Shown here: piece by piece, positions 7,475 to 49,466 of the stretch
Layout of the letters: each line of letters opens with the position of its first letter
Position numbering within the stretch: position 1 is the first letter of the stretch
Source: Pedobacter sp.
Lineage (GTDB): Bacteria > Bacteroidota > Bacteroidia > Sphingobacteriales > Sphingobacteriaceae
DNA: 64,000 nucleotides
Assembly: GCA_008015505.1 (NCBI GenBank)
Contig: SSFR01000004.1
Coordinates: 15,194-79,193, forward strand
Direction of reading: 5' to 3'
The notes under the pieces: model-generated
The model's database searches: none
What the model saw: the letters and a program-made list of their open reading frames with translations, nothing else
What the model was told of the DNA's origin: nothing
Program-made: the position numbers and the translations under genes

Positions 7475-7538
7475 ACCGATTACTATCTAGGAGATTGTTT
7501 AAGCAGCACTATATCTACAGGAATGTATTTAAGAAAAA

Positions 7539-7639
7539 ATGGGCAAGCCCCCTTTATCGCACCGCTACAACCTTCTACCCTTGCTGCGTTCCCACCCTGG
7601 GGGAGTTCAAAGGGAGCTGGTCGTAAAGGACTTACCCAT
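7539..7639 (-). ncRNA. ffs: Signal recognition particle RNA (small bacterial 4.5S type)
   Basis: The minus strand reads atgggtaagtcc...gaactcccccAGGgtgGGAAcgcAGCAaggg...gggcttgcccat. The termini pair over 12 bp, and the helix-8-like CAGG/GGAA loop/AGCA core is present. A -7 box TACTTTTG lies 5 nt upstream. Confidence 0.9.
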
Positions 7640-7644
7640 GGGGG

Positions 7645-32122: not shown

Positions 32123-32261
32123 AACTAGAAAATTGATTGACGAAAATAAAAATTTCGGTCTACAAACTTACGAGGATTTTAGGTGAGCGCTTACCCGAAA
32201 AAAATAATAATTTTGACGGTCTAAATCTCTCTAAAATACCTCCATTATTTATTACCTCCAT

Positions 32262-33041
32262 ATGAAGCCCCTGCAAACAGCTGAACGAGTAGCTCACCAC
32301 GACCCGTCAGATCATGTTATTTATCAAAGATCCCTATTAGCTTACCAGGAAGCTGCTAAACGAATCCATGGGAAAGTGCTTGAAATTGGAACAGGAAGCG
32401 GCTATGGACTTGCATTAATCGCTGAACAGACAGATGAACTGGTGACCATCGACAAATACAAAGCTAGCTTTGATCTTCCTGATCACCTCACCGATAAAAT
32501 TCAATTCATCCAGATGAATGTCCCTCCACTAACAGGTATTCCGGATAAGGAATTTGATTGCGTAATTACATTTCAAGTCATTGAACATATTGACCAAGAT
32601 GAGGATTTTGTTAGTGAGATACATCGCGTTTTAAAAGATGGGGGAAAACTCATTGTCACCACACCAAACGCCAACATGTCACTGACTAGGAATCCTTGGC
32701 ACGTTAGAGAGTATACTGCCCAACAGCTCAAAATACTATTGCGTCGAAAGTTTCAATCTATTGAGACACTCGGTGTTTTTGGTCATTCAAAAGTGATGGA
32801 TTACTATTTAAAGAATAAAGAATCCGTCAAAAGAATAACTCGATTCGACATTTTCGATCTGCAACATCGCTTACCCAGACGATTTTTACAAATCCCCTAT
32901 GATCTGATGAACCGATTGAATCGGAGAAAGCTCCTTAAGCATAACCACGATCTGGTGCTAGATATTACCCACAAGGACCACTTTCTAAGTCAGGCTGATG
33001 ACAAATGTTTTGATCTTTTTTACGTAGCAACAAAACAGTAA
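32262..33041 (+). CDS. Class I SAM-dependent methyltransferase
   Basis: VLEIGTGSGYG, FQVIEHI, LKDGG..TTPN and NPWHVREYT motifs. -7 box TAATTTTG at 32208-32215. Confidence 0.9.
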   Translation: MKPLQTAERVAHHDPSDHVIYQRSLLAYQEAAKRIHGKVLEIGTGSGYGLALIAEQTDELVTIDKYKASFDLPDHLTDKIQFIQMNVPPLTGIPDKEFDCVITFQVIEHIDQDEDFVSEIHRVLKDGGKLIVTTPNANMSLTRNPWHVREYTAQQLKILLRRKFQSIETLGVFGHSKVMDYYLKNKESVKRITRFDIFDLQHRLPRRFLQIPYDLMNRLNRRKLLKHNHDLVLDITHKDHFLSQADDKCFDLFYVATKQ

Positions 33042-33060
33042 AAACCTAGATCTCAAATAT

Positions 33061-33651
33061 TCACAATCCCGTATTTGATCTAAAAAGCTTGATAGCAATT
33101 GCTAATAAAATAACTCCAAAAGCTTTCCGAAGAACATTAAGCCCAGCTTTCCCAAACAATTTTTCCAACCTGAAGGTATTTTTAAGCACGAAATAAACAA
33201 ATATCACATTGAGAATAATGCCTGCAATGATATCCTGCGTAGCATACTGAGACTTCAAAGATAAAACCGTTGTCAGTGTCCCCGAACCTGCAATTAGCGG
33301 AAAAGCCAATGGAACAATTGACACACTTTCAGGCATTTCTTCCTTAAAAAGATTAACGCCTAAAATCATTTCCATTGCAATGAAAAATATCACAAACGAA
33401 CCTGCAATGGCAAATGAAGACACATCTAGACCAATCACATCCAGTAGCTGCTCCCCAATAAATAAAAACAACACCATCAGCACCAATGAAGCAATGGAAG
33501 CCTTTCCAGACTGAATATGCCCCGCTTTATTCCGTAACGCAATAATAACAGGAATAGCCCCAAGAATATCGATAATCCCAAAAAGAATCATTGTTACCGA
33601 AAGTATCTCATTTAGATTGAACTTGAGATAAGACATCATACCATGAAACAA
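33061..33651 (-). CDS. MarC-family membrane protein
   Basis: IIDILGAIP, IVPLAFPLIAGSG and FGVILLAIAI motifs. -7 box at 33672-33679. Confidence 0.9.
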   Translation of the reverse strand: MFHGMMSYLKFNLNEILSVTMILFGIIDILGAIPVIIALRNKAGHIQSGKASIASLVLMVLFLFIGEQLLDVIGLDVSSFAIAGSFVIFFIAMEMILGVNLFKEEMPESVSIVPLAFPLIAGSGTLTTVLSLKSQYATQDIIAGIILNVIFVYFVLKNTFRLEKLFGKAGLNVLRKAFGVILLAIAIKLFRSNTGL

Positions 33652-33699
33652 CGCTAAAAAATTAATAAGGGCAAAGGTACATTTTTTCCCTCTCTGCTC

Positions 33700-35205
33700 T
33701 TATAAACCGCCCTGTTGTTTTCGCACAAGGCTATTCCGAATGCCGTAAATAAAATAAACAAGTAAGCCTACAGCCATCCAAATTAATAATCGTTCCCAAT
33801 TATGCCTCCCCAAACCATACATCATCACCACACAAACCACAATCCCCAATATCGGCACAACAGGCATAAAAGGTGTTTTAAAAGCCCGAGGACGAGCCGG
33901 ATCAGTCTTCCGCAAAATTAACACGCCTAGACATACCAAAGCAAAGGCAAACAACGTCCCAATACTAGTCATATCACCTATCACATCTCCAGGTATAAAA
34001 GCAGCAAATAGTCCTGCCAATACCATAAATACCAGATTAGATTGATAAGGGGTTTTAAAACGGGGATGTATGGTAGAAAATAGTTTGGGGATTAAACCGT
34101 CCTTAGACATGCTAAAAAACAACCTCGACTGACCCAATAACGTCATTAAAATCACGGAAGTAAAACCAGCCAAAATAGCTACCGTAATTGATATCGATAA
34201 CCATTGATGATTGTGCATATAGGTATTTATTACATAGGTTACCGAGGCTTCTTTTCCAGCCAAATCAAACTCTTTATAATTAGCAACCCCAGTCAATACA
34301 TAACCGAAGGACACATATAATAATGTACAAATCACTAACGAACCTAGGATACCTATAGGTAGATCTCGTTTCGGATTTTTACATTCCTGCGCTGTTGTCG
34401 AAAGAGCATCAAAGCCAATAAAAGCAAAAAAAACCACTCCTGCTGCACTAACAATTCCTCCCCAGCCAAATTTGCCAAACTCACCACTAGTAATATGATC
34501 CCAAAAACTAATCTCACCATTCATTAGCTTAATCTCACTCACATTTTGAGGAATGTATGGTATATGATTAGCAGGATTAATATAGCTCCAGCCAATGGCA
34601 ACAAAAGTGATTACTATAGCTAATTTAATAACAACCATAATCATATTTAATACAACTGATTCCTTCATTCCCCGTATCAGAAGCAAAGAAATGATCGTGA
34701 TAATCAATAAAGCTGGTAAGTTCATAACCCCTTGGATACCTTCTATAGAAGTCTGAAATGGGGAATGACACCAAGTATAAGGTATCACTAAACCAAACGT
34801 TTCCAGCAGTTTATTCAAGTATTCCGACCAAGCAATGGCAACAGCAGCGGAAGCCACTCCATACTCCAAAATTAAATCCCAGCCAACTATCCATGCAAGC
34901 ACCTCCCCCATGGTAGCATACGTATAGGTATAAGCACTCCCTGCAACAGGGATCATAGAAGCAAACTCAGCATAACATAAACCGGCTAATGCACAACCCA
35001 CTGCAGCTAAAATAAATCCTAAAGTCACCGCTGGACCAGCATGATCTGCTGCCGCTACAGCAGTTCGAACAAATAAACCTGCTCCAATAATACCTCCAAC
35101 CCCCAAAGCAATCAAATTCCCCGGACCAAGGGTGCGCCTAAGTGTATGCTCTCCACTTTCTGATGCTTCCAACAAAAGAGAATCTAAGGATTTTTTGAAT
35201 TTCAT
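33700..35205 (-). CDS. APC/CAT-type amino acid permease, array copy 1
   Basis: GGIIGAGLF (TM1), CYAEFAS.IP.AGSAYTY, LEYG, FFAFIGFDA and GQSRLFFSMSKDG motifs. Confidence 0.95.
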   Translation of the reverse strand: MKFKKSLDSLLLEASESGEHTLRRTLGPGNLIALGVGGIIGAGLFVRTAVAAADHAGPAVTLGFILAAVGCALAGLCYAEFASMIPVAGSAYTYTYATMGEVLAWIVGWDLILEYGVASAAVAIAWSEYLNKLLETFGLVIPYTWCHSPFQTSIEGIQGVMNLPALLIITIISLLLIRGMKESVVLNMIMVVIKLAIVITFVAIGWSYINPANHIPYIPQNVSEIKLMNGEISFWDHITSGEFGKFGWGGIVSAAGVVFFAFIGFDALSTTAQECKNPKRDLPIGILGSLVICTLLYVSFGYVLTGVANYKEFDLAGKEASVTYVINTYMHNHQWLSISITVAILAGFTSVILMTLLGQSRLFFSMSKDGLIPKLFSTIHPRFKTPYQSNLVFMVLAGLFAAFIPGDVIGDMTSIGTLFAFALVCLGVLILRKTDPARPRAFKTPFMPVVPILGIVVCVVMMYGLGRHNWERLLIWMAVGLLVYFIYGIRNSLVRKQQGGL

Positions 35206-35446
35206 GTTATAATAAGTTTATTTTACATTAAGAACACAAACGACATAATAAGTAGATTATTTTATTTGTTGGAAAACTTGCTTTAAACAGAACGGTCGCC
35301 ACTAAAGGGATAGTTTCTCAAAATAGGCAAAAAACAAACCTTGAAGAATCAAATAGTAATTGAAGGGGGATAATACACACATAAAGCTTCCAGACCATAA
35401 CTAGTCAAAGCCCCATCATTTAACAGACTCCCTATAAATCAAATAT

Positions 35447-35478
35447 AAAAGGCCCCAGAGTAACACCGAGGCCTTTTT
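35447..35478 (-). terminator. Intrinsic terminator after permease copy 2
   Basis: aaaaggcc...ggccttttt. Confidence 0.55.
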
Positions 35479-35507
35479 AGAATAAACAAATACACTATCT
35501 ACTCACC

Positions 35508-37010
35508 CTATTGTTTAGCCTTTTTTCGGATGACACTATTCCGAATGCTATAAGAGAAATAAATTACAAAGCCTATAGCCATCCAAATAAATAATCGTTC
35601 CCAGTTATTGACTCCTAATCCAAGCATCATCGCTACACATACCACAATTCCAAGTATAGGGACTAAAGGCACAAAGGGAATCTTAAAAGAACGTGGACGA
35701 TCTGGATCCGTTTTACGAAGAATAAGCACTCCCAAGCAAACCAATGTAAAGGCAAATAAGGTACCAATACTAGTCATATCGCCCACTATATCCCCAGGTA
35801 CAAATGCAGAAAACAATCCAGCCAACAAAAGAAAAATTAAATTTGATTTATATGGGGTCTTAAAGCGAGGATGCAAATCCGAGAATATTTTAGGCACCAA
35901 GCCATCTCTTGACATACTAAAAAACAATCTTGATTGTCCCCAAAGCATCACCAATATGCCCGAAGTAAAACCAGCCAAAATAGCAACAGTCACTGCGATA
36001 GATAACCAATGATAGCCATACATATAGGTATCAATTGCATAGGCTACGGATGCTTCCTTTCCTACTGTCTCAAACTCTCTATAATTAGCTACTCCAGTAA
36101 GCACATGACCAAAAAGCACATAAAGTAACGTACAAATACCCAATGAAGCCAGTATACCAATAGGTAGATCTCGCTTAGGATTCCGACATTCTTGAGCAGT
36201 TGTTGAAATGGCATCAAATCCAATAAAAGCCATAAATACCACCCCCGCTGCACTAATTACTCCACCCCAACCAAATTTTCCAAAATTACCACTCACTAAA
36301 TGATCCCAAATACCAATTTCTCCACTCATCAGCTTTATTTCACTTTCATTTGGGGGAATATATGGCGTATGATTGATCGGATTGATGTAGCTCCATCCAA
36401 TCGCAATGAATGCTAACACCACAGCCACTTTCAAAATAACCATGAACATATTAACCCTAGCTGACTCCTGCGTCCCACGAATTAAAACCATAGTTAACAC
36501 AGCCATAATCAATAACGCCGGAAGATTAATAATTCCCTGCACACCTTCAAGTGATGTCTGGAAAGGAGAATGGCAAAATTCATAAGGAATACTCACCTCA
36601 AAGACTTCTAACAACTTATTTAAGTACTCTGACCAAGCTATAGCCACCACAGAAGCACCCAAAGCATATTCTAAAACAAGATCCCACCCAATTACCCAAG
36701 CTACAGTTTCTCCCATTGTTGCATAAGTATAGGTATAAGCGCTCCCAGAAATTGGAATCATAGAAGCAAATTCAGCATAGCATAAACCGGCTAATGCACA
36801 ACCTATCGCAGCTAGAATAAATCCTAAAGTCACCGCTGGGCCAGCATGCTCCGAAGCTGCAGCAGCCGTCCGAACAAATAAACCTGCACCAATAATGGCT
36901 CCAATTCCAAGCGCAATTAAATTCCAAGGTCCCAAGGTTCGCTTAAGTGTATGTTCCCCACCCTCCGAAGCTTCCAATAAAAGCTGATCTATAGATTTTC
37001 TAAATCTCAT
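35508..37010 (-). CDS. APC/CAT-type amino acid permease, array copy 2
   Basis: Same motifs as copy 1. ATG 37010 (MRFRKS) matches the paralog starts; -7 box at 37058-37065. Confidence 0.95.
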   Translation of the reverse strand: MRFRKSIDQLLLEASEGGEHTLKRTLGPWNLIALGIGAIIGAGLFVRTAAAASEHAGPAVTLGFILAAIGCALAGLCYAEFASMIPISGSAYTYTYATMGETVAWVIGWDLVLEYALGASVVAIAWSEYLNKLLEVFEVSIPYEFCHSPFQTSLEGVQGIINLPALLIMAVLTMVLIRGTQESARVNMFMVILKVAVVLAFIAIGWSYINPINHTPYIPPNESEIKLMSGEIGIWDHLVSGNFGKFGWGGVISAAGVVFMAFIGFDAISTTAQECRNPKRDLPIGILASLGICTLLYVLFGHVLTGVANYREFETVGKEASVAYAIDTYMYGYHWLSIAVTVAILAGFTSGILVMLWGQSRLFFSMSRDGLVPKIFSDLHPRFKTPYKSNLIFLLLAGLFSAFVPGDIVGDMTSIGTLFAFTLVCLGVLILRKTDPDRPRSFKIPFVPLVPILGIVVCVAMMLGLGVNNWERLFIWMAIGFVIYFSYSIRNSVIRKKAKQ

Positions 37011-37195
37011 ATTACCTTTCAATCGATTTTTTAATAGAATTATAATAAGCGAGCCGGCAAACTTAATATTTTACTTGAAATAAAATATTGTATTTTGATT
37101 AATAACAAAACACAAGCTTCATTCATCAATAAAAAAGTTTTATATAGCAACTCTGACTTCTTTTTTATTACACAAATGGCACAAAATTCCTACTA

Positions 37196-38698
37196 TTATT
37201 TGCGCTGCGATTTACGTATCACACTATTCCTCATCCCATAGCTCAGATAAAGCACTAAACCAATAGCAGTCCAAGAGAATAATTGTATCCAGCTGTCTCG
37301 GCCCAAACCAAGCATCATAACCACACACACAATAATTCCTAATATAGGTACAAATGGCATAAATGGTGTTTTAAAAGGACGATGACGATTCGGATCTGTT
37401 TTACGTAGAATCAGTATTCCTAAACAAACCAACGTGAAAGCAAATAGTGCTCCAATACTGGTCATCTTACCCACCACATCAACAGGAATAACTGCAGCAA
37501 CAATTCCAATGAAGGCAAGAAATATTAAGTTAGATTTATAAGGAGTCTTAAATCTAGGATGTAAATCTGAAAACACTTTTGGTATAAGCCCATCTTGGGA
37601 CATCGTATAAAATACACGAGACTGACCCAATAGCATCACTAAAATAACCGAAGTAAAACCAGCTAAAATAGCCACAGTAATCAGCATAGATAACCATTGA
37701 TAATTTTGCATATACGTTTCAATTGCATAAACTACCGATGCCTCCTGACCCACTGTTGCAAATTCTTTATAATTAGCTACTCCAGTAAGTACATGACCAA
37801 ATAAAACATACAAGATCGTACAGATAACTAATGCACCTAGTATCGCAATGGGCATATCCTTACTTGGGTTCTTAGCTTCCTGCGCAGCTGTTGAAACTGC
37901 ATCAAATCCATTGAAAGCAAAAAAGACAACCCCTGCTGCACAAACAATTCCGCCCCATCCGAACTTACCAAAATCACCACTTGTTAAATAAGCCCAAAGG
38001 TCCATTTCTCCGCTGAACACTTTAGCTTCGCCCATATTTTCTGGGATATATGGCGTATGATTCATCGGATTGATAAACGTCCATCCAATGAGGATGAATG
38101 TGATAACAATAGCTACCTTCACCACAACCATGAGATTGTTTAAGGTCACCGATTCACTAATGCCACGTACTAACAGCAAAGAAACAATCGCTACAATAGC
38201 TAAAGCTGGTAAATTGGCAATACCATGTACCCCATCGACCGAAACCTGAAAAGGTGAATGACAAAATTCATAAGGAATGATAACCCCAAATTTCTCAATG
38301 AACTTATTAAAATACTCAGACCACGAAATAGCTACTGTTGCAGCAGAAACTCCATATTCCAGCACCAAATCCCAACCAACAATCCAAGCAACAACTTCAC
38401 CCATAGTGGCATAAGTATAAGTATAAGCACTTCCCGCAACAGGAATCATAGAGGCAAACTCGGCATAACATAATCCCGCCAATGCACAACCACTAGCTGC
38501 CAAAATAAAACCAAGTGTTACAGCCGGACCCACGTTTTCAGCTGCCGCTCGCGCTGTTTGTACAAATAAACCTGCTCCAATAATGGCCCCAACGCCCAAT
38601 GTAATCAGATTCCAAAGACCCAATGTGCGCTTAAGGGTGTGCTCTCCACTTTCCGAAGCCTCCAATAGAAGGAGATCCAGGGATTTTCTAAATTTCAT
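37196..38698 (-). CDS. APC/CAT-type amino acid permease, array copy 3
   Basis: Same motifs, with variants FAFNGFD and GKMTSIGAL. -7 box TATGTTTG at 38751-38758. Confidence 0.95.
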   Translation of the reverse strand: MKFRKSLDLLLLEASESGEHTLKRTLGLWNLITLGVGAIIGAGLFVQTARAAAENVGPAVTLGFILAASGCALAGLCYAEFASMIPVAGSAYTYTYATMGEVVAWIVGWDLVLEYGVSAATVAISWSEYFNKFIEKFGVIIPYEFCHSPFQVSVDGVHGIANLPALAIVAIVSLLLVRGISESVTLNNLMVVVKVAIVITFILIGWTFINPMNHTPYIPENMGEAKVFSGEMDLWAYLTSGDFGKFGWGGIVCAAGVVFFAFNGFDAVSTAAQEAKNPSKDMPIAILGALVICTILYVLFGHVLTGVANYKEFATVGQEASVVYAIETYMQNYQWLSMLITVAILAGFTSVILVMLLGQSRVFYTMSQDGLIPKVFSDLHPRFKTPYKSNLIFLAFIGIVAAVIPVDVVGKMTSIGALFAFTLVCLGILILRKTDPNRHRPFKTPFMPFVPILGIIVCVVMMLGLGRDSWIQLFSWTAIGLVLYLSYGMRNSVIRKSQRK

Positions 38699-39130
38699 AC
38701 TGCTTTTTAGTCTGTTTGAATGATATAATTCGTTAAAATAACGTAAAAAACAAACATATACTATTATTAGTTATAATGCAAAAAATATATACACACTAAG
38801 CCCTCATTATTCCTAAGTGGAACATCATTCTACCATACTCAAAAGAATATGTCAGTTTTCGATAGATAAATAAGTTTTTTGATTTCTGGAACCCCTATTA
38901 GAAACACACACTTTATCTTAATTTACCAGAATAAAAGATTTTTATTTTTTATCAAAAATAAAACATAATTTAATTATTTTATTAATTTTTAAAAGAAAAC
39001 AATGAGGGGTATTTCTAGTCCAGTATTATAAAACCTTTTAAATAAACTTAAAAAGGATTTCCCCCATAACTAGATTCTTCTGGTACACTCAAAAACTACC
39101 AAAAAGCACTGTGGTTTTATTTATTGCAAA

Positions 39131-40639
39131 TCATTTGTCTGCAATTTGGTTTTTCCTAATAACACTATTCCTAACTCCATAAGTGAGATAAATTATCAAA
39201 CCAATACCCATCCAAATCAATAAGCGTTCCCAACTTGGCTTACCTAATCCAATCATCATGATCACACACACGATAACCCCAAAAATGGACACAAATGGCA
39301 TCAACGGTGTTTTAAAAGGACGATGACGATTCGGATCAGTGATACGCAAAATAAGTACCCCCAAACAAACCAACATAAAGGCAAATAACGTACCAATACT
39401 AGTCATATCACCTACGACATGAGCCGGTACAAACGCAGCAGACAAACCTGAAAAAGCAAGAAATATTAAATTCGATTTATATGGGGTCTTAAATCGAGGA
39501 TGTAGTACAGAAAATATTTTTGGCACAAGCCCATCCTTAGACATGGCATAAAATACCCGAGACTGCGCAAGCAATGTCACCAAAATCACTGAGGTAAATC
39601 CAGCCAAAATAGCCACAGTGATTAAAATCGAAAGCCACCGATAACCTTGCATGTAGCTTTCAATAACATAAGATACTGATGCCTCCTTACCAGCACCCGC
39701 AAATTCTCTATAATTAGCCACACCAGTTAATACGTGGCCAAAGAGAATGTACAAAACCGTGCAGATAAGTAAGGAAGCCAAAATACCAATGGGCATGTCC
39801 TTAGCCGGATTTTTGGACTCTTGAGCAACAGTAGAAACAGCATCAAAACCAAGGAAAGCAAAAAATACAATCCCCGCAGCACTAATAATACCACTCCATC
39901 CAAATTTACCAAAATCATCCCCCCTAATAAAATCCCAAAAACCAATCTTCCCCGACATTAATTTCATCTCTCCCATATTCTGAGGAATATACGGATCATA
40001 ATTTACTGGATTTACAAACCCCCACCCAATAGCAATAAATGCAATCACGATAGCTACTTTTAGAATGACCATGACACCATTTAGTGCTACAGATTGTTTA
40101 GTCCCGCGAATCAGCACTAAAGAAATCAACACAATGATAAAAAGCGCTGGAAGATTTATAATTCCCGATATCCCATCAGCTGAATTTTGAAAGGGCGAAT
40201 GACACCACACATAGGGTATCACTAAACCAAAAGTTTCAAGTAATTTATTCAGATATTCCGACCAAGCAATGGAAACAGCCGAAGCAGCTACACTGTATTC
40301 CAAAACCAAATCCCAACCAACTATCCAGGCTAGAGTTTCTCCCATAGTCGCATAGGTATAGGTATAGGCGCTCCCCGCAATAGGAATCATCGAAGCAAAC
40401 TCAGCATAGCATAGACCTGCTAATGCACATCCAATAGCTGCTAAAATAAAGCCCAAAGTCACAGCTGGCCCCGCATGTTCTGCAGCCGCTCGTGCTGTTT
40501 GCACAAACAAACCCGCCCCAATAATAGCCCCAACCCCCAGCGCAACTAAATTCCCAGGACCTAATGTACGTTTCAAGGTCTGCTCCCCACTTGTTGAAGC
40601 CTCTAGCAAAAGAACATCCAGGGGTTTTTTAAATCTCAT
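39131..40639 (-). CDS. APC/CAT-type amino acid permease, array copy 4
   Basis: Same motifs, with variants FAFLGFD and LVTLLAQSR. -7 box at 40689-40696. Confidence 0.95.
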   Translation of the reverse strand: MRFKKPLDVLLLEASTSGEQTLKRTLGPGNLVALGVGAIIGAGLFVQTARAAAEHAGPAVTLGFILAAIGCALAGLCYAEFASMIPIAGSAYTYTYATMGETLAWIVGWDLVLEYSVAASAVSIAWSEYLNKLLETFGLVIPYVWCHSPFQNSADGISGIINLPALFIIVLISLVLIRGTKQSVALNGVMVILKVAIVIAFIAIGWGFVNPVNYDPYIPQNMGEMKLMSGKIGFWDFIRGDDFGKFGWSGIISAAGIVFFAFLGFDAVSTVAQESKNPAKDMPIGILASLLICTVLYILFGHVLTGVANYREFAGAGKEASVSYVIESYMQGYRWLSILITVAILAGFTSVILVTLLAQSRVFYAMSKDGLVPKIFSVLHPRFKTPYKSNLIFLAFSGLSAAFVPAHVVGDMTSIGTLFAFMLVCLGVLILRITDPNRHRPFKTPLMPFVSIFGVIVCVIMMIGLGKPSWERLLIWMGIGLIIYLTYGVRNSVIRKNQIADK

Positions 40640-40781
40640 ATTTCTTCAATCCGTTTTTACATCTATCCTTATTAGGAAACACAAACGGCAAACTTATATT
40701 ATTTTATCCAGATAATTGATGAAAAAATGGAGAGATCGTAAGAATTTTAGCTCAAAAAAGGGTTATATCATTTCTGATCAC

Positions 40782-40927
40782 AAGCCTTCCTGAGGTTTAT
40801 TTTATGAAACTATTACCAGTTATTTTCTACCGAGATGAGGCAGATTCTGAAAACGTAACGGGGGCAGCTATGATAAAAAACCTAACGGAGTTGCAACAAA
40901 AAAATAAAATAAACTTTAGACCGGCCC
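40782..40927. mobile_element. MITE copy 4, degenerate
   Basis: gtttattttatgaaactatt..gagatgaggcagatt..ctaacggagttgca..aaataaactttagaccggccc followed by TTA; the left end is eroded. Confidence 0.7.
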
Positions 40928-40938
40928 TTAGCCAAAGA

Positions 40939-40976
40939 TTCCCCTTATTTGAGATGGTCACCTCAAATAAGGGGAA
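40939..40976. terminator. Perfect 15-bp hairpin, likely the terminator of the OYE gene
   Basis: ttccccttatttgag-atggtcac-ctcaaataaggggaa. Confidence 0.7.
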
Positions 40977-41021
40977 ATGAAAGTATAAACTCAAAAGCGT
41001 TATACGTTATAAAAGACTCGA

Positions 41022-42143
41022 CTACCTAACCAAAAGTTCTTTTTCAGTATCAAAACAAGGGTAATCCGTATATCCTTGTTCAGCTCCCCCATAGAATGTA
41101 CTTCTATCTGGTTGAGCTAATGGCCAATGATGCTTCAATCTTTCAGGTAAATCTGGATTAGCAATAAATGGCTCCCCAAAAGCAGCAAGATCTATATTTC
41201 CTTCTACTAATAATTCTTCGGACTTTTCACGGTCTAATCCTCCAGCTAAAATAATAATACCCGAATACCACGACCGAAAACGTGCTAAAAAGCCTTCTGG
41301 AAGTGCATAACTACCTCTTGATTTCTGGTCCATAATATGAATATAAGCGATATTACGCTTAGCTAATTCCTGAGTAAGATAATAATAGAGTGGTTCGATC
41401 TCCTCATAATGCGGGGAGTCATGAAGACCTCCATAAGGTGACAAACGAACTGCAACTCGCTCATAACCAATTTTTTCAGCACAAGTATCAACGGTCTCTA
41501 AAAGAAAACGACAGCGATTTTCAATAGTTCCTCCGTACTGATCCACTCGATTATTGATGAACGGATTTAAGAACTGTTCAATTAAATAGCCATTGGCACC
41601 ATGTAGTTCTATACCATCAAAACCTGCTTTTATCGCATTAGATGAAGCTTGGGCAAAATCCACTTCTACCTGCTTAATCTCCTGGCTAGACAAAGGCCGC
41701 GGCTGTGAACAACTGACAAAGTTTTCATTGCCATCTTCATCATAACCCCAAGAAAAAGAGGTAACAGCTCGTATATCAGAAGGTCCAACTGGAAGCTGCC
41801 TGTTAGGCTGATTAGAAACATGAGAAATACGCCCTACATGCCAAAGTTGAGCAAAAACCATACTTCCTTCCCCATGAATGGCTTGTGTTACTAATTTCCA
41901 ACCCTCTGTTTGCTCTGCCGTATGAAGCCCTGGAATACGCAATACACCCACAGAAGTTTCAGAAATAGCCGCTCCTTCCGTGATGATTAGCCCAGCCCCC
42001 GAACGCTGGCGATAATACTCCGCATTCATTGAAGTGGGGACCCCTTTGTCTGGATTTCTAGCACGAGTCATGGGCGCCATGACAATCCTATTTTTTAACT
42101 GAAGAGATTGTTTCTTAAATGGTTCAAATAGCATATGAGTCAA
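41022..42143 (-). CDS. Old yellow enzyme / alkene reductase (NemA-like NADH:flavin oxidoreductase)
   Basis: KNRIVMAPMTRAR, QLWHVGRISH, GFDGIELHGANGYL and NPDLP motifs. Confidence 0.93.
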   Translation of the reverse strand: MTHMLFEPFKKQSLQLKNRIVMAPMTRARNPDKGVPTSMNAEYYRQRSGAGLIITEGAAISETSVGVLRIPGLHTAEQTEGWKLVTQAIHGEGSMVFAQLWHVGRISHVSNQPNRQLPVGPSDIRAVTSFSWGYDEDGNENFVSCSQPRPLSSQEIKQVEVDFAQASSNAIKAGFDGIELHGANGYLIEQFLNPFINNRVDQYGGTIENRCRFLLETVDTCAEKIGYERVAVRLSPYGGLHDSPHYEEIEPLYYYLTQELAKRNIAYIHIMDQKSRGSYALPEGFLARFRSWYSGIIILAGGLDREKSEELLVEGNIDLAAFGEPFIANPDLPERLKHHWPLAQPDRSTFYGGAEQGYTDYPCFDTEKELLVR

Positions 42144-42254
42144 TTAAAGGTTAAAAAACAACTGATATATTTTTAAATAGTTACCAAACTCACAACGCTG
42201 TATCTATTTATAAAGTATCACCTATATCAAAAAATGACTCATTAATGAAATATT

Positions 42255-43781
42255 CTAGCTTGATTTTAAATTGCCCTCTTGCTGCGCCGCTTTACGTATG
42301 ACACTATGTTTAATACTATAAGTAAAATAAATAATCAGACCAATGATCATCCAAATAATTAATCGTTCCCAGTTATGCCTACCTAATCCGAGCATCATTG
42401 TCAAGCAGACCACTATTCCGAGAATAGGTACAAAAGGCATAAAAGGTGTTTTGAATGGACGATGACGTCCCGGATCTGTTTTACGTAGAATAAGCACCCC
42501 TAAACATACCAAAGCAAAGGCAAAAAGCGTACCAATACTGGTCATATCACCCACCACATCCCCGGGAACAAAGGAGGAAAATATACCAGCGAAGAGAAAA
42601 AATATCAAATTGGACCGATAAGGTGTTCGATATTTAGGATGCAAATCAGAAAATGCTTTGGGAATCAGACCATCTTTTGACATGCTAAAAAATACCCGAG
42701 ACTGACCCAACAACAATACCAATATAACCGAAGTAAAACCAGCCAAGATCGCCACACTAACCAATGTGGCTAGCCAATGATAACCATGCATGTAAGTATC
42801 TATCGCATAAACTACGGATGCCTCCTTTCCCACTGTTTCAAACTCTTTATAACTGGCAACCCCAGTTAATACGTGTCCAAAAAGCACGTACAAGACTGTA
42901 CAAATACCCAAAGACACGAGCATCCCAATGGGTAAATCCCTCTTAGGGTCTTTAGCCTCTTGGGCTGCTGTTGAAACGGCATCAAATCCAATAAAAGCAA
43001 AAAACACCACACCTGCAGCACTAATAACCCCACTCCATCCAAACTTCCCAAACCAGCCACTCGAGATATAATCCCAAAAGCCAATCTCCCCACTAATTAG
43101 CTTTTTTTCGCCCAGATTCTCAGGAATATATGGCATATGATTAGCAGGATTGATAAACCCCCACCCAATAGCAATAAATGCAATAACAATGGCTACTTTG
43201 AGAATAACCATGATATCGTTTACTGTTGCCGACTCCTCAATTCCTCGTATCAAAATCAAAGAAACCACTCCAATAATCAATAAAGCAGGAATATTAATCA
43301 GCCCGTGTTCTCCATGAATTGACATTTGAAAAGGCGAATGACACCAGGCATAGGGAATAGTTATACCAAAAGTTTCGAGCAACTTATTCAAATACTCCGA
43401 CCAGGCAATAGAAACTGTGGCAGCTCCCAATGCATACTCTAAAACTAAGTCCCAACCAATGATCCAAGCAAGGGTCTCACCCATAGTTGCATAAGTATAG
43501 GTATAAGCACTCCCTGCAATGGGAATCATCGAAGCGAATTCTGCATAACATAGCCCAGCTAATGCACAACCTATTGCGGCCAAAATAAAACCAAACGTAA
43601 CAGCTGGACCTGCATGATCTGCCGCTGCAGCAGCTGTTCGAACAAATAATCCCGCCCCAATGATTGCCCCAATACCCAGTGCAATTAAGTTTCCAGGGCC
43701 TAAAGTACGTTTAAGCGTATCCTCCCCAGCTTCTGAGGCCTCTATCAATAAACGATCCATAGATTTCTTAAATCTCATCAT
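42255..43781 (-). CDS. APC/CAT-type amino acid permease, array copy 5
   Basis: Same motifs; only 63 bp downstream of copy 6. Confidence 0.95.
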   Translation of the reverse strand: MMRFKKSMDRLLIEASEAGEDTLKRTLGPGNLIALGIGAIIGAGLFVRTAAAAADHAGPAVTFGFILAAIGCALAGLCYAEFASMIPIAGSAYTYTYATMGETLAWIIGWDLVLEYALGAATVSIAWSEYLNKLLETFGITIPYAWCHSPFQMSIHGEHGLINIPALLIIGVVSLILIRGIEESATVNDIMVILKVAIVIAFIAIGWGFINPANHMPYIPENLGEKKLISGEIGFWDYISSGWFGKFGWSGVISAAGVVFFAFIGFDAVSTAAQEAKDPKRDLPIGMLVSLGICTVLYVLFGHVLTGVASYKEFETVGKEASVVYAIDTYMHGYHWLATLVSVAILAGFTSVILVLLLGQSRVFFSMSKDGLIPKAFSDLHPKYRTPYRSNLIFFLFAGIFSSFVPGDVVGDMTSIGTLFAFALVCLGVLILRKTDPGRHRPFKTPFMPFVPILGIVVCLTMMLGLGRHNWERLIIWMIIGLIIYFTYSIKHSVIRKAAQQEGNLKSS

Positions 43782-43844
43782 ACCAAATGATTAATACTCA
43801 TCTAAATCAGCTAGTTTCTAGTCATTATTGATACTATTCAATTA

Positions 43845-45353
43845 TCAAGCTTCTTTAAGCTTCTTTCGCACGATACTATTTTTTACACTATAAGAAAAGT
43901 AAATGATTAAACCTATTGCCATCCAAACAAACAAACGTTCCCAATTGTGCTTTCCTAGTCCAAGCATCATCGTTACACACACTAGCATACCTAATATGGG
44001 TACTACAGGCATAAAAGGAGTTTTAAATGGACGATGACGATGTGGATCAGTTTTACGCAAAACCAAGATTCCCAGACACACAAGTGAAAACGCAAATAAA
44101 GTACCTATACTCGTCATGTCGCCCACCACATCCCCCGGTATAAAAGCAGCAAAAGCACCAACGAACACAAGAAATATATAATTCGACTTATAAGGAGTCT
44201 TAAACTTAGGATGTAAAGCTGAAAATGTTTTGGGTATTAATCCATCTTTTGACATACTAAAAAACACCCTCGATTGTCCTAATAACATTACCAATATAAC
44301 CGAAGTAAAACCAGCCAAAATAGCCACTGTCACTAACGTAGATAACCATGGATATCCATGCATATAAGTAGCAATTACATAAGCTACTGAAGCCTCTTTA
44401 CCTGGCCCTGAAAATTCTTCATAATTAGCCACTCCTGTTAATACATGGCCAAAAAGCACGTACAAGACTGTACAAATACCTAAAGACACGAGCATCCCAA
44501 TGGGCATATCTTTTTTGGGATTTTTAGATTCCTGTGCAGCAGTTGAAACGGCATCAAAACCAATGAAGGCAAAAAACACAACCCCTGCTGCACTAATAAT
44601 TCCACTCCAACCAAACTTTCCAAACCAGCCACTCGAGATATAATCCCAAAAGCCAACCTCACCATTTATTAGCTTTTCTTCACCCAGATTCTCAGGAATA
44701 TATGGCATATGATTCGATGGATTCATATACTTCCAACCGATGGCAATAAAGGCAACAACAATAGCAACCTTTACAATAACCATCAGATTATTTAATGTAG
44801 CGGACTCTTCAATCCCACGAACTAAAACTAAAGTGATCATTACAATGATCAATAGGGCTGGAAGATTGATTAGTCCAGCCACCCCATCTGCTGAAACTTG
44901 GAGGGGAGAATGACAATATTGATACGGAATATGAATACCGAAAGAAGACCCAAGTAATCGATTAAGATATTCTGACCAAGCAATAGAAACTGTGGCAGCT
45001 CCCAAGGCATATTCTAAAACTAAATCCCATCCAATTACCCAAGCAACCACCTCTCCCATGGTTGCATAAGAATAAGTATAGGCACTACCAGCAATGGGAA
45101 TCATCGAAGCAAACTCAGCATAGCATAAGCCCGCTAATGCACACCCAATTGCTGCCAACACAAAGCCCAAAGTAACCGCCGGACCAGCATGTTCTGCTGC
45201 CGCTGCTGCTGTTCGAACAAATAACCCAGCCCCAATAATGGCCCCAACCCCCAAGGCAACTAAATTTCCAGGGCCTAAAGTACGCTTGAGTGTATGCTCC
45301 CCACTCTCAGATGCTTCTAAAAGAAGGTGGTCTAAAGATTTTTTAAATTTCAT
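43845..45353 (-). CDS. APC/CAT-type amino acid permease, array copy 6
   Basis: Same motifs; most similar to copy 5. Confidence 0.95.
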   Translation of the reverse strand: MKFKKSLDHLLLEASESGEHTLKRTLGPGNLVALGVGAIIGAGLFVRTAAAAAEHAGPAVTLGFVLAAIGCALAGLCYAEFASMIPIAGSAYTYSYATMGEVVAWVIGWDLVLEYALGAATVSIAWSEYLNRLLGSSFGIHIPYQYCHSPLQVSADGVAGLINLPALLIIVMITLVLVRGIEESATLNNLMVIVKVAIVVAFIAIGWKYMNPSNHMPYIPENLGEEKLINGEVGFWDYISSGWFGKFGWSGIISAAGVVFFAFIGFDAVSTAAQESKNPKKDMPIGMLVSLGICTVLYVLFGHVLTGVANYEEFSGPGKEASVAYVIATYMHGYPWLSTLVTVAILAGFTSVILVMLLGQSRVFFSMSKDGLIPKTFSALHPKFKTPYKSNYIFLVFVGAFAAFIPGDVVGDMTSIGTLFAFSLVCLGILVLRKTDPHRHRPFKTPFMPVVPILGMLVCVTMMLGLGKHNWERLFVWMAIGLIIYFSYSVKNSIVRKKLKEA

Positions 45354-45526
45354 AAGGTTTACTAATTCGTTTGTATTTCTAATTCGCTTATCTCATGATG
45401 ACGAACCGTAAACATATATTATTTTACTTTAATGACATAATAAATATTTTTAATTAATAAAAATTAACAAATATTAAAACAAAACATTCTTCAGCTAAAA
45501 AGTCATATCAAAAAACCATCTAAAAT

Positions 45527-45566
45527 AAAACAAGCCCCGCACATAGTTATGTGCGGGGCTTGTTTT
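45527..45566. terminator. Intrinsic terminator of hppA (18-bp stem)
   Basis: aaaacaagccccgcacat-agtt-atgtgcggggcttgtttt. Confidence 0.85.
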
Positions 45567-45593
45567 CATAAATTTATACTAAAAAATTCTTAT

Positions 45594-47813
45594 CTAAAGC
45601 GCTTTCTTACAACATACTTGAGTAGGGGAAAAAGCTTTCACCTGAGGAGTTGTTAGCTCCGTTTTTACCTGTTCTCCTTTGTTGGCGACATGGGTGTCAC
45701 CTTGCGAAATATGAGGTGCAATGATGAGTGATACAATAGACATGAGTTTGATCAAGATATTCATCGATGGCCCAGAGGTATCCTTAAATGGGTCTCCCAC
45801 TGTATCACCTGTTACAGATGCTTTATGTGGTTCCGATTTTTTGTAATACATCTCACCATTAATTTCCACTCCTTTCTCAAACGATTTTTTCGCATTATCC
45901 CAAGCTCCACCAGCATTTGACTGAAACATGCCCATCAATACCCCCGATACCGTCACTCCTGCTAACAATCCACCTAATACCTCTGGGCCAAAGGAAAAAC
46001 CAACTATGACAGGAACTAATAGCGCTATTCCCCCAGGTAGCATCATCTCACGAATAGACGCTCGGGTAGAAATAGCCACGCATTTCTCATACTCCGGTTT
46101 GGCCTTGTATTCCATAATTCCGGGTATTTCACGAAACTGACGCCTGACTTCATTCACCATATCCATGGCAGCCCGACCTACAGCAGAGATACACAAAGCA
46201 GAAAAAATAAAAGGAATCATTCCACCAACAAATAGTCCTGCTAGCACATTGGCCTTATAAATATCAATGTGACTAATACCAGCAATACCTACAAAAGCAG
46301 CAAATAATGCGAGTGAAGTTAAAGCAGCTGACGCAATGGCAAAACCCTTACCTGTTGCTGCTGTCGTATTTCCTACCGCATCGAGATTATCGGTACGTTC
46401 CCGTACTTGAGGAGGCAATCCACTCATTTCGGCAATCCCTCCTGCATTATCTGCAATAGGACCAAATGCATCAATTGCTAATTGCATCGCCGTTGTAGCC
46501 ATCATACCTGCTGCAGCAATCGCAACTCCATACAAACCCGCAAAGTAATAGGATCCATAAATGCCCGCAGCAAGTACCAAAATAGGTAATACCGTCGATT
46601 CCATCCCAACGGCTAATCCGGCGATAATATTGGTTGCATGTCCCGTAGACGATTGCTTAATAATAGATAAAACCGGGCGTTTACCCATCGCTGTGTAATA
46701 TTCCGTAATTAGACTCATCAAAGCCCCAACAACCAAACCCACCATAATCGAAAAAAAGACATCCATTTTTGTGAATTGAAAGTCACGGATAGTCATTACT
46801 CCAGGCAGTAACCACTGCACAGCGAAAAAAGCCGCAATGGCCGTCATGATGATCGAAGACCAATTACCCATATTCAGCGCTCTTTGTACACTATCTGTTT
46901 CTTTATCAATACGAACAAATGAAGTAGCTATGATCGAAAAAATTAATCCCAATCCAGCAATCAACATTGGTAAAAGAATTGGAGCAATTCCACCAAAGTC
47001 GTCGACAGAAACAATCTCTCGGCCCAACACCATCGTGGCAAGGATAGTTGCTACATATGAGCCAAACAAATCCGCACCCATCCCAGCGACATCCCCCACA
47101 TTATCTCCTACGTTATCTGCAATAGTTGCCGGATTACGAACATCATCCTCAGGAATACCCGCTTCTACTTTTCCAACCAGATCAGCACCCACATCAGCAG
47201 CCTTCGTATAAATACCCCCACCAACACGCGCAAATAAAGCAATTGACTCCGCACCTAAAGAAAATCCAGCCAGTACTTCGAGTGCTTTCTCCATCTCTTT
47301 CCCATTCACACTACCACCTGTCTGAACAACATATATCTGATAGAATACCATAAACAGAGCCCCCAAACCCAAAACAGCCAAACCAGCCACGCCAATCCCC
47401 ATCACACTTCCCCCCGTAAACGAAACACTTAATGCTTTGGCCAGACTAGTTCTAGCCGCTTGTGTGGTGCGCACATTAGCTTTGGTTGCAATTCGCATCC
47501 CCAGATATCCAGCAAATGCCGAGGTACACGCGCCAATGATGAATGAAATGGCAATCACACAACTTGAAGTTTCAACCAAAGTACCTGAATAAGCTAAGAT
47601 AATAGACGCAATGATGACAAAATAGGTCAACACCTTCCATTCTGCACGCAAAAAAGCCATTGCACCGTCGGCGATGTGACCAGCTAATACATTCATTTTA
47701 TCATCACCAACCTCTTGCTTGGTTACCCAAGCCGATTTAACTAACATGACCACGATACCAATGAGTCCAAAGACAGGAATAGCGTATATCAAATTGTTTT
47801 GCAAAAAATTCAT
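45594..47813 (-). CDS. hppA: Membrane ion-translocating pyrophosphatase, K+-dependent type
   Basis: [35 protein letters not shown] and [14 protein letters not shown] motifs. Confidence 0.96.
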
Positions 47814-48040
47814 GTAAACGAGTTTTAATTTTTATTCAATTTCAGTTTGACCGGCTAAAGTAAGCTGGTTAATCTATTATTCAAAAAATTTATGCCATTC
47901 ATTTCCTGAATTCAAGAATCAAGCCCCACTTTATCATTCCATGGTTGACAACATTAAAAAAAATTAAATAAGTTATAGGAAATAAACCCAAATTTGACAT
48001 TTTTTTAGATATATTGGCGACCGTTTAAAAAAATTATAAA

Positions 48041-49456
48041 ATGGATGAAGTTTTAGAAGAAGGTAAAATGAAACGAGAGGTAAGTCTATTAGACGCCGTT
48101 TCACTCGTTGCAGGAAGTATGATTGGTTCTGGTATTTTTATTGTGTCAGCTGATATTACAAGGCACGTTGGGTCTGCTGGTTGGTTACTTGGTATTTGGG
48201 CAATTACGGGTATCATGACTTTAATCGCAGCCATAAGTTATGGTGAACTAGGAGCGATGTTCCCCAAAGCAGGTGGACAGTATCTTTTTTTAAAAGAAGC
48301 TTATAGCGATTTTGTTGGTTTTTTATATGGATGGAGCTTCTTTGCGGTCATTCAAACAGGATCCATTGCAGCAGTGGGTGTTGCTTTTTCAAAATTCACC
48401 TCATACCTTATTCCCCAAATCAATGAAGAAATGATCCTCATTGCCCTTGGACCATTACAACTATCATCTGCTCAACTTCTTGCTTTAGCAATAATTGTCT
48501 TACTCACATACGTTAATACAAGAGGTGTGAAAGAAGGTAAATCTGTTCAAACCTTCCTCACCGTGATCAAAATAGCTTGCTTACTTGGGATTATTGTTTT
48601 TGGTCTCTGGGCATTAAAGCCAGAGATATGGACTAGCAACTGGCAAAATGCCTGGCCCATGCGTAAAATGAATATTGATGGCTCTTTTGAATCGTACACA
48701 ATGGTTGCTGCATTGGGTGCCATTGCAGCTGCAATGGTTGGCTCTGTTTTCAGTTCCGACTCTTGGCACGCTGCAACAGCGGTCGCTGGAGAAATTAAGA
48801 ATCCGCAGCGCAATGTCGGTTTAAGCTTATTCATTGGCGCTTTAACAGTGATTATTATTTATATCATCATCAATATTGTTTATTTAGGCGTATTACCACT
48901 AAACGAAATTGCTTTTGCAAAAAATGATCGCGTTGGCGTTGCTGCGGCAGATATCATATTTGGAACCACAGGCACCTCTATTATTGCCGCTATGATTATG
49001 ATTTCTTGTTTTGGTTGTGCTAACGGTCTAATTCTAGCAGGCCCAAGGGTATATTATACGATGGCAAAGGATGGACTATTTTTTGAAAAGGTAGCTCATC
49101 TCAACAAAAATGGTGTTCCTTCATTTGGTTTATGGGTACAGTGTTTAGTTGCCTGTGCACTCTGCCTAAGTGGAAGATATGGTGACCTATTAGATATGGT
49201 TTGTTTCGTTGTCGTACTGTTCTATATATTAAATATATTGGGTATTTATAGACTACGAATTACACGACCAAATGCACCCAGACCATACAAGGCATTTGGA
49301 TATCCTATTTTACCGGCCATTTATGTTTTATTAGCCTCGGCTTTCTGCATTTTATTGGTTTTTTACAAACCCAATTACACCTGGCCAGGCCTACTTATTG
49401 TTTTGACAGGAGTGCCCATTTACTTGCTCTGGAAACGTAAATTAGCCGCACATTAA
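48041..49456 (+). CDS. APC amino acid permease of a different (LAT/SteT-like) subfamily
   Basis: GSMIGSGIF, YGELGAMFPKAGGQY, GEIKNPQRN and GPRVYYTMAKDG motifs. Confidence 0.92.
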   Translation: MDEVLEEGKMKREVSLLDAVSLVAGSMIGSGIFIVSADITRHVGSAGWLLGIWAITGIMTLIAAISYGELGAMFPKAGGQYLFLKEAYSDFVGFLYGWSFFAVIQTGSIAAVGVAFSKFTSYLIPQINEEMILIALGPLQLSSAQLLALAIIVLLTYVNTRGVKEGKSVQTFLTVIKIACLLGIIVFGLWALKPEIWTSNWQNAWPMRKMNIDGSFESYTMVAALGAIAAAMVGSVFSSDSWHAATAVAGEIKNPQRNVGLSLFIGALTVIIIYIIINIVYLGVLPLNEIAFAKNDRVGVAAADIIFGTTGTSIIAAMIMISCFGCANGLILAGPRVYYTMAKDGLFFEKVAHLNKNGVPSFGLWVQCLVACALCLSGRYGDLLDMVCFVVVLFYILNILGIYRLRITRPNAPRPYKAFGYPILPAIYVLLASAFCILLVFYKPNYTWPGLLIVLTGVPIYLLWKRKLAAH

Positions 49457-49466
49457 TTCATTTCCA

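Follow-up and report, generated by a model that had tools for sequence, protein, structure and literature searches.

In-place six-fold expansion of a CAT-subfamily amino acid permease gene in an uncultured Sphingobacteriaceae lineage

Introduction

Among transporters of solved structure, the closest to the proteins described here is GkApcT of Geobacillus kaustophilus, in which transport is coupled to protons and independent of sodium (PMC5803215). In that protein the backbone of the substrate is held by transmembrane helices (TM) 1 and 6, and the size of the substrate is limited by side-chain bulk at A119, I234, V317 and, above all, M321; indeed, the M321S substitution shifts the half-maximal inhibitory concentration (IC50) of arginine from 6 mM to 11 µM and opens the pocket to Arg and Lys (PMC5803215). 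Proton coupling depends on Glu115 on TM3, replacement of which by Ala abolishes transport and by Gln leaves counterflow only, while Lys191 on TM5 is essential and yet was concluded not to couple transport to the proton gradient (PMC5803215). GkApcT was studied as a single gene. The 64,000-nucleotide stretch of a Pedobacter sp. contig analyzed here (contig SSFR01000004.1 of assembly GCA_008015505.1; hereafter, the window) instead carries, at positions 33700 to 45353 and all on the minus strand, six paralogous permease genes that vary at these specificity positions and that are numbered from P1 on the MarC side to P6 on the pyrophosphatase side.

Several other described systems are related to this locus. 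BcaP/YhdG (Lactococcus lactis, Bacillus subtilis) share with the window proteins the CAT-like subfamily and the C-terminal AA_permease_C region; the BcaP genes of Firmicutes are reported to be single and CodY regulated. CAT1/CAT2 (SLC7A1/2) and plant CAT4 are of the same subfamily, but the eukaryotic CATs are longer (14 TM), and the mammalian ones, which are facilitators or exchangers and are not proton coupled, have Ser at the position of Glu115 (PMC5803215), where all six window copies keep Glu. MjApcT of Methanocaldococcus jannaschii shares the APC superfamily, the LeuT fold and a TM5 Lys at the Na2-site position (cited in PMC5803215), but it belongs to another APC subfamily, and the coupling role suggested for its Lys was not upheld for the closer homolog GkApcT (PMC5803215). 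Lineage-specific expansions of amino acid transporters are found among aphid slimfast/CAT and plant AAP/AAT genes, but these are eukaryotic, and some are tied to symbiosis. Copies within the plant AAP/AAT families have come to differ both in expression and in specificity. For the aphid slimfast/CAT expansion, male-biased expression of some paralogs is reported (PMC3231810). A literature search found no description of a comparable six-gene array of CAT-type permeases in bacteria.

The account that we favor, at a probability of roughly two in three, is that one CAT-subfamily permease gene expanded in place to six in this lineage and that the copies were kept for diverged substrate range or affinity.

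Results

Six intact permease genes assigned to the CAT subfamily

The six genes, each called from its open reading frame (ORF) and Pfam match, are as follows.

33700 to 35205, minus strand: P1, permease paralog of 501 aa, adjoining the MarC gene
35508 to 37010, minus strand: P2, permease paralog of 500 aa counted from the ATG at 37010
37196 to 38698, minus strand: P3, permease paralog of 500 aa
39131 to 40639, minus strand: P4, permease paralog of 502 aa
42255 to 43781, minus strand: P5, permease paralog of 507/508 aa, starting 63 nt past the end of P6
43845 to 45353, minus strand: P6, CAT-subfamily APC permease of 502 aa, adjoining the pyrophosphatase gene

For P2 the mechanical ORF opens at a TTG (37022), but the ATG is favored by homology and by two public gene calls (500 aa). 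Each ORF (500 to 508 aa) is uninterrupted, as the first-pass annotation, made from the letters of this stretch, had reported for six intact genes of about 500 aa on one strand, and the N-terminal motif that it quoted, M(K/R)F(K/R)K..D.LL.EAS..GE.TL(K/R)RTLG, is indeed common to all six copies in a six-way alignment, in which about 260 of about 500 columns are invariant. Its description of a tandem array held insofar as the six genes are neighbors, but they are not strictly contiguous: an Old Yellow Enzyme (OYE) gene that it did not mention (41022 to 42143) splits P6-P5 from P4-P1.

All six proteins matched Pfam AA_permease_2 (PF13520) at 170 to 195 bits (cutoff, 27) over about 400 to 425 of the 427 profile positions; all also matched AA_permease along their full length, and AA_permease_C (PF13906) was present in every copy at 42 to 54 bits (cutoff, 27). 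The GkApcT structure (5oqt/6f34) was matched over the full length at 45 to 47% identity (E = 1e-124), followed by mammalian CAT1 and plant CAT4 (E = 1e-71 to 1e-75), well ahead of LAT and other SLC7 light-chain transporters. The top NCBIfam model for all six was BcaP (NF053761; E = 1e-156 to 1e-166), but because the scores of 520 to 553 bits fall under its equivalog cutoff of 690, the name, which is specific for branched-chain amino acids, is not transferable; TIGR00909 and TIGR00906, both models of CAT subfamilies, came second and third, each below its own cutoff. On these matches the six proteins are assigned to the CAT subfamily of the APC superfamily (SLC7-like; TC 2.A.3.3). The first-pass annotation, which named them APC/CAT permeases, had compared their TM5 Lys with that of ApcT-type transporters. 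They are probably not of the MjApcT type; no MjApcT chain was among the PDB matches at E <= 1e-10.

The TM1 motif GAIIG.G and the equivalents of Glu115, Lys191, Asp237, Tyr268 and Arg327 of GkApcT are kept in all six copies, and the equivalent of Phe231 is kept in five, with Met in P2; a difference from GkApcT is that the equivalent of Thr43 is Ala in all Bacteroidota homologs examined. By analogy with GkApcT, each copy would be a secondary transporter of the LeuT fold and would take up amino acids by proton symport, with the substrate held by its backbone and with specificity set by bulk at positions 119, 234, 317 and 321. The TM5 Lys, which the first-pass annotation had seen to be retained, is K195 in P6 and aligns with Lys191. 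As a marker of proton coupling it is weak and does not carry over to GkApcT, in which coupling has been assigned to Glu115; moreover, since this Lys, like the equivalents of Asp237 and Tyr268, was invariant in every homolog examined, it distinguishes nothing.

Relative to GkApcT, about 25 extra residues lie between TM5 and TM6 (P6 residues 222 to 245; window positions ~44619 to 44690) in all six copies and in most Bacteroidota homologs. This stretch, presumably an outside loop, varies more between the paralogs than any other segment and is missing in one protein (P0063).

Origin of the array at a single-copy locus

The array is bounded and interrupted by the following genes.

45594 to 47813, minus strand: membrane-bound ion-translocating pyrophosphatase (Pfam H_PPase, E = 2e-265), the upstream neighbor, conserved for the ancestral single-copy permease
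41022 to 42143, minus strand: OYE/NemA-like NADH:flavin oxidoreductase of 373 aa, between P5 and P4 (Pfam Oxidored_FMN, E = 1e-84)
33061 to 33651, minus strand: MarC/NAAT-family membrane protein (Pfam and NCBIfam), the downstream neighbor, conserved for the ancestral single-copy permease

The pyrophosphatase scored 1259 bits against the NCBIfam model of sodium-translocating pyrophosphatases, over the cutoff of 1059; the OYE protein, at 378 bits, did not reach the cutoff of 403 for the NCBIfam N-ethylmaleimide reductase subfamily.

In Pedobacter immunditicola and on a JGI contig, the locus consists of a LAT-type permease gene on the opposite strand, the pyrophosphatase gene, one CAT-type permease gene and the MarC gene. 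Assembly GCA_025353765.1 has the same single-copy locus, but with a major facilitator superfamily transporter gene between the permease and MarC. In the window, the pyrophosphatase and MarC flank six copies instead of one. In a neighbor-joining tree (100 bootstraps), the six copies formed one clade (bootstrap, 100) that was sister to the single-copy genes of the pyrophosphatase-MarC locus, and the topology within it was ((P6,P5),((P3,P4),(P1,P2))), so that neighboring genes are sisters. P6 is the copy nearest to the outgroups (77 to 81% identity), and P1, P3 and P4 are the most derived (68 to 75%).

The array was also found in two other lineages. Lineage R (543-kb scaffold, L081) has six copies in the window's order. 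In lineage S (L089), whose 29-kb contig stops at this point, at least four copies precede MarC, again in the same order. The R and S copies paired one to one with their positional counterparts in the window at bootstraps of 97 to 100, except that the fourth copy of S joined the P4 pair at 57. Housekeeping proteins of the window and of R are 70 to 89% identical, and the permease orthologs of the window and the other lineages differ by 0.08 to 0.13 nonsynonymous substitutions per site (dN), with synonymous substitutions per site (dS; calculable for all but two pairs) saturated; the state of six copies is therefore older than the separation of what are clearly distinct species, and every copy has been retained from then on. 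All six derive, by tandem duplication in place, from one chromosomal gene that is kept single in Pedobacter-like relatives.

A phylogeny had been proposed as a check by the first-pass annotation, and it gave the single clade and the one-to-one orthologs just described. The same annotation had held that an identical array in close free-living relatives would speak against its reading. As far as the genes are concerned, this applies to the related lineage R, which carries the same six; the presence of the array in R counts against a recent niche-specific adaptation and not against specialization.

Counted within +/-10 kb, one copy was present at 76 of 80 genome loci and two copies at 4 (among the matches listed, at 58 to 70% identity), and 77 further loci, many of them on short contigs, had 0 or 1 copy each. 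Three or more copies were found at none of these 157 unrelated loci (many contigs being short), in line with the earlier remark that such an array is not typical of the family. A search of metagenome contigs with P3 found no close ortholog, the best match being 72% identical. Pedobacter sp. PAMC26386 carries an independent two-copy tandem of the same permease (L043, 10001 to 13116); its copies group at a bootstrap of 100, and in one of them the M321 equivalent is Leu.

The cargo at the P5/P4 junction differs between lineages: the window has the OYE gene, whereas R (L081, 13560 to 15984) has an M10 peptidase gene on the opposite strand, a 37-aa ORF and a lipid A deacylase gene, with no OYE gene. 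The OYE gene is an inserted passenger that interrupts the permease array. This junction coincides with the deepest split of the paralog tree.

Linkage of the pyrophosphatase to the permease was seen in L081, L088, L090 and L091, and the linkage of this pump to secondary transporters may be functional. A LAT-type APC permease gene (48041 to 49456, plus strand) is divergent from the pyrophosphatase gene, with the CAT-type permease and MarC following, and this order is kept in several Sphingobacteriaceae genomes (L088, L090 and L091).

Age of the copies and selection on them

Paralog pairs share 71 to 80% protein identity and 70 to 77% DNA identity, with dS of 1.25 to 2.0 (saturated) and dN/dS of 0.08 to 0.14, all dN/dS values being estimates by the method of Nei and Gojobori (NG86) only. 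The duplications are old, and every copy is under strong purifying selection.

A gene that recurs in a metagenome assembly is sometimes an artefact, and only for this reason did we consider that the copies might be products of assembly or decaying genes; no support for such an explanation was found. Since the longest exact word common to any two copies, at their 70 to 77% DNA identity, was only 20 to 37 nt, short-read assembly could neither have collapsed nor have created copies. The identical six-gene layout was present in two independent assemblies, JGI 3300015609 (166-kb contig) and ENA ERZ27282943 (220-kb contig), and at least 20 DNA runs from 10 studies contained 91 to 97% of the words sampled from positions 39000 to 45400, the 6.4-kb part of the array (P4, the OYE gene, P5 and P6) that the run search covered. 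A look for long-read (Nanopore) runs found none. No ORF was broken in any of the lineages examined, and dN/dS, at roughly 0.1 or below, was far from the value near 1 that the first-pass annotation had associated with decay. On copy divergence, the independent assemblies and low dN/dS, both artefact and decay were ruled out, their probability being negligible, and the earlier judgment that these are old, diverged duplications and not an assembly repeat was confirmed.

Copy-specific changes in the substrate pocket

The roles of pocket residues were taken from the study of GkApcT (PMC5803215) and mapped by alignment onto the six copies. At GkApcT positions 39/115/117-120/122/191/231/234/237/317/320/321/324, the ancestral signature is A-E-A[VL]GA-T-K-F-I-D-V-V-M-G, which is common to about 85 single-copy homologs from several genera, with four sequences differing at one or two positions. 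The six pockets compare with it as follows.

P6: identical to the ancestral signature, as are the P6 orthologs
P5: M321L
P4: A117S, G119A, T122A, I234L, M321T, G324A
P3: A117G, G119S, I234N
P2: T122V, F231M, V317G
P1: A39G, A117G, G119A, A120S, T122A, V320M, M321T

The I234N change of P3 puts a polar side chain into the unwound stretch of TM6, and all seven members of the P3 orthogroup have both this Asn and the Ser at 119. The core signature changes recur in orthologs of other lineages, with 3 to 7 sequences per orthogroup. Missing in more distant members of their orthogroups are M321T and V320M (P1), I234L and G324A (P4) and M321L (P5), and the S copy of P1 has V317G in place of M321T. Smaller residues at the equivalents of 119 and 321 accompany larger or cationic substrates (PMC5803215), and P1 and P4, with Thr at 321, move in the direction of the mammalian CATs.

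Conservation of at least 95% among 78 single-copy homologs was seen at 160 columns, and just 19 of them were altered in a paralog both in the window and in R. These 19 cluster in TM1, TM3, TM6 and TM8 and include positions 231, 234, 317, 321, 39, 117, 121, 122, 320 and 324. The testable specificity residues all deviate (3/3; hypergeometric P = 0.0014), as do 4 of the 11 pocket or gate residues named in PMC5803215 (hypergeometric P = 0.028). We infer that this is the pattern that specialization of the derived copies would give, with P6 keeping the ancestral job.

A different consequence of the substitutions would be that some copies, above all those of the P3 type, changed in mechanism and became uncoupled facilitators or exchangers, exporters, or sensors. 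Five of the seven sequences in the P3 orthogroup have Ala at the position of Glu115 (R, L081 18340 to 19842; S, L089 3108 to 4613; P0080, P0100 and P0110), and it is at this residue that the Ala variant of GkApcT is inactive, the Gln variant is confined to counterflow and the mammalian CATs have Ser (PMC5803215). However, P3 of the window keeps Glu here, as do the five other window copies, and the equivalents of Asp237, Lys191 and Tyr268 are invariant everywhere, so that we hold a change of mechanism to be improbable.

Predicted promoters and transcription units

Candidate promoters and terminators of the array are as follows.

45527 to 45566, minus strand: strong intrinsic terminator after the pyrophosphatase gene, with an 18-bp stem, separating that gene from the array
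45406 to 45420, minus strand: predicted promoter before P6, a -7 box in AATATATGTTTACGG, near-consensus TAnnTTTA, 63 nt before the ATG
40941 to 40974, minus strand: perfect hairpin directly after the OYE stop codon, predicted terminator
40686 to 40700, minus strand: predicted -7 box before P4, AATATAAGTTTGCCG, 57 nt upstream of the ATG and kept in the R ortholog
38748 to 38762, minus strand: predicted -7 box before P3, AGTATATGTTTGTTT, 60 nt before the ATG
37054 to 37070, minus strand: predicted -7 box before P2, AATATTAAGTTTGCCGG, 55 nt upstream of the ATG and kept in the S ortholog
35447 to 35477, minus strand: predicted intrinsic terminator after P2, with a 12-bp stem

A Bacteroidota-type -7 box, TAnnTTTG (within AATATAWGTTTGCCG), lies 54 to 63 nt upstream of P2, P3, P4, P6 and several of the R and S orthologs, and counterparts of the P6 box were found in the R ortholog (-54) and before the single-copy gene of Pedobacter immunditicola (-66). 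No promoter box of its own was found for P5, and no exact box of the TAnnTTTG type was found for P1. Because boxes precede four of the window genes, their orthologs and the single-copy Pedobacter gene, the promoter appears to have been copied along with the gene; that is, the duplication unit would have included it. A sigma-70 scan was uninformative, with 46 sites versus 44.7 expected, as anticipated for Bacteroidota.

The 100-nt leader of P3 (38699 to 38798), in which the P3 box lies, shares about 90% identity with the sequence that precedes the R ortholog, while the synonymous sites of the coding sequence are saturated, which points to a constrained promoter and 5' leader. This leader had no Rfam family match, and no conserved hairpin was seen in it; nor was any riboswitch or leader RNA found between the genes when the whole window was searched at the Rfam gathering threshold. 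Sub-threshold Rfam matches to Thr and Leu leaders and to HrrF were treated as chance, the leader matches coinciding with the hairpin that terminates the pyrophosphatase gene and, of the three, two being on the opposite strand.

In four bioreactor metatranscriptomes, contig depth was highest and similar for P6 and P5 (13 to 20x), followed by the OYE gene and P3 (both about 10x), P2 (3 to 10x) and then P4 and P1 (0 to 3x). RNA contigs from the bioreactor bridged P6-P5 (43113 to 44478) and P5-OYE (40971 to 42906) and no other junction. Coverage was 0 to 1 over positions 40515 to 41015, and the hairpin at 40941 to 40974 likely ends a P6-P5-OYE transcript. Over positions 35004 to 35504, coverage was 0 to 1 in three of the bioreactor runs and about 1.4 in the fourth (X29). 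A wastewater RNA run from a separate study gave another ranking, with P4 relatively highest. Runs X25 to X27, although labeled metatranscriptomic, were rejected as expression evidence: their coverage was flat and DNA-like, on both strands and in intergenic regions (32200 to 49500), and their contigs were 50 to 95 kb long. The array would thus be read as about five transcription units, P6-P5-OYE, P4, P3, P2 and P1 (the last perhaps with MarC), differing in relative RNA levels.

Separate promoter boxes and RNA coverage that differs per copy would also be obtained if dosage or regulation alone had been partitioned, with the six copies carrying essentially the same substrates and the pocket changes being near-neutral. 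The copies would then serve to increase uptake capacity or to provide one function under several conditions, for instance at high and low affinity or from stress-specific promoters. The almost identical pockets of P6 and P5 agree with this explanation, as does the conservative nature of many of the pocket changes (M to L, I to L, G to A). However, the changed positions are invariant in the roughly 85 single-copy homologs, most are fixed differently in each orthogroup, and they are kept across diverged lineages. I234N, V317G and M321T are non-conservative, and the shift in arginine IC50 cited above for GkApcT resulted from a change of side-chain size at position 321 (PMC5803215). Moreover, dosage amplifications are usually young and near-identical, whereas these copies are saturated at synonymous sites. 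Partitioning of dosage or regulation alone is, in our estimation, unlikely.

Host organism and the rest of the window

The best named protein matches were to Pedobacter, Arcticibacter, Daejeonella and Mucilaginibacter, and a near-identical P4 is annotated in a "Sphingobacteriaceae bacterium" metagenome-assembled genome. The labeled runs that contain the sequence are described as wastewater, bioreactor, sludge, freshwater or plain "metagenome," and two runs are unlabeled; no host-derived sample was among the 44 listed runs containing the sequence.

These occurrences bear on the remark in the first-pass annotation that such uptake is a trait often seen in auxotrophic or host-associated bacteria, on which reading the array would offset lost amino acid biosynthesis. 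Auxotrophies are common in uncultured bacteria, and an OPT transporter, a LAT-type permease and M61 and M42 aminopeptidases cluster in the window. On the other hand, the sample types include no host, the array is conserved in diverged relatives, and the window is a normal housekeeping chromosome of ordinary GC content and gene density, with genes for HtrA, DapF, TIM, PGK, DXS, RibF, TruB, FtsX, DnaK and L17. Nothing in the window suggests host association or genome reduction. The host-associated lifestyle was therefore not sustained, and compensation for lost biosynthesis is a very improbable reason for the array.

The OPT oligopeptide transporter (4114 to 6174), the M61 aminopeptidase with a PDZ domain (49467 to 51254), the M42 aminopeptidase (53030 to 54136) and the HtrA-like protease (203 to 1711) lie outside the array; together with the LAT-type permease, they fit a proteolytic, amino acid-scavenging lifestyle. 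At 25380 to 27260, a single 626-aa ORF combines an Nramp metal-ion transporter with a C-terminal universal stress protein (Usp) domain, as a fusion. A 372-aa ORF at 13040 to 14158 (minus strand) had no Pfam match at E <= 1e-5. The only Rfam match above threshold in the window was the following.

7537 to 7644, minus strand: small signal recognition particle RNA, Bacteroidales type (107 bits; gathering score, 55)

Discussion

Sub-functionalized amino acid uptake, as the first-pass annotation had proposed, appears to be the best reading of this array: five of the six copies have copy-specific pocket changes, four have predicted promoter boxes, and RNA coverage differs between them. The copies would have been kept because they diverged in substrate range or affinity, and the host would be a free-living, uncultured member of the Sphingobacteriaceae, a heterotroph of activated sludge and freshwater that scavenges protein and amino acids and whose uptake was broadened by the expansion.

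Several points weigh against this interpretation. The substrates are deduced solely from a homolog that is 45 to 47% identical, and the pocket residues are those named in one paper, as opposed to a set defined by modeled distances in these proteins. Just 3 and 11 positions underlie the enrichment P values, and saturation of dS blocks any test of positive selection after duplication. At least between P6 and P5, whose pockets are nearly the same, the difference may be one of dosage or regulation alone. The promoter boxes were called purely by their match to a consensus, and the measure of expression, assembler k-mer depth of metatranscriptome contigs, is a poor one in which DNA carry-over is possible.

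A more specific proposal, which we offer tentatively and think doubtful, is that the array is a natural mutational series of the CAT/SLC7 pocket, in which the derived orthogroups (P1 to P4 and perhaps P5) each import another class of amino acids and the P3 type is drifting from proton symport to uncoupled facilitation or exchange. If this were true, the P3 type would retrace, inside a single bacterial cluster of genes, the change of mechanism by which the mammalian CATs differ from GkApcT.

The family, the fold and the process of tandem expansion are all known already, and the array is no new kind of system. It is, however, a clear bacterial case in which one gene became six in place and in which the promoter would have been copied too. 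Work to date on substrate choice, and on the gain or loss of proton coupling, in the SLC7/CAT group has relied for the most part on engineered mutations of a single bacterial homolog; the array supplies six long-maintained natural variants, P6 and five derived copies, that differ at positions 119, 231, 234, 317 and 321 on a scaffold of 71 to 80% identity, and the orthologs in other lineages serve as replicates of these natural pocket variants. For the organism, the array would mark a broadened capacity for amino acid scavenging in an uncultured Sphingobacteriaceae lineage that recurs in wastewater treatment communities.

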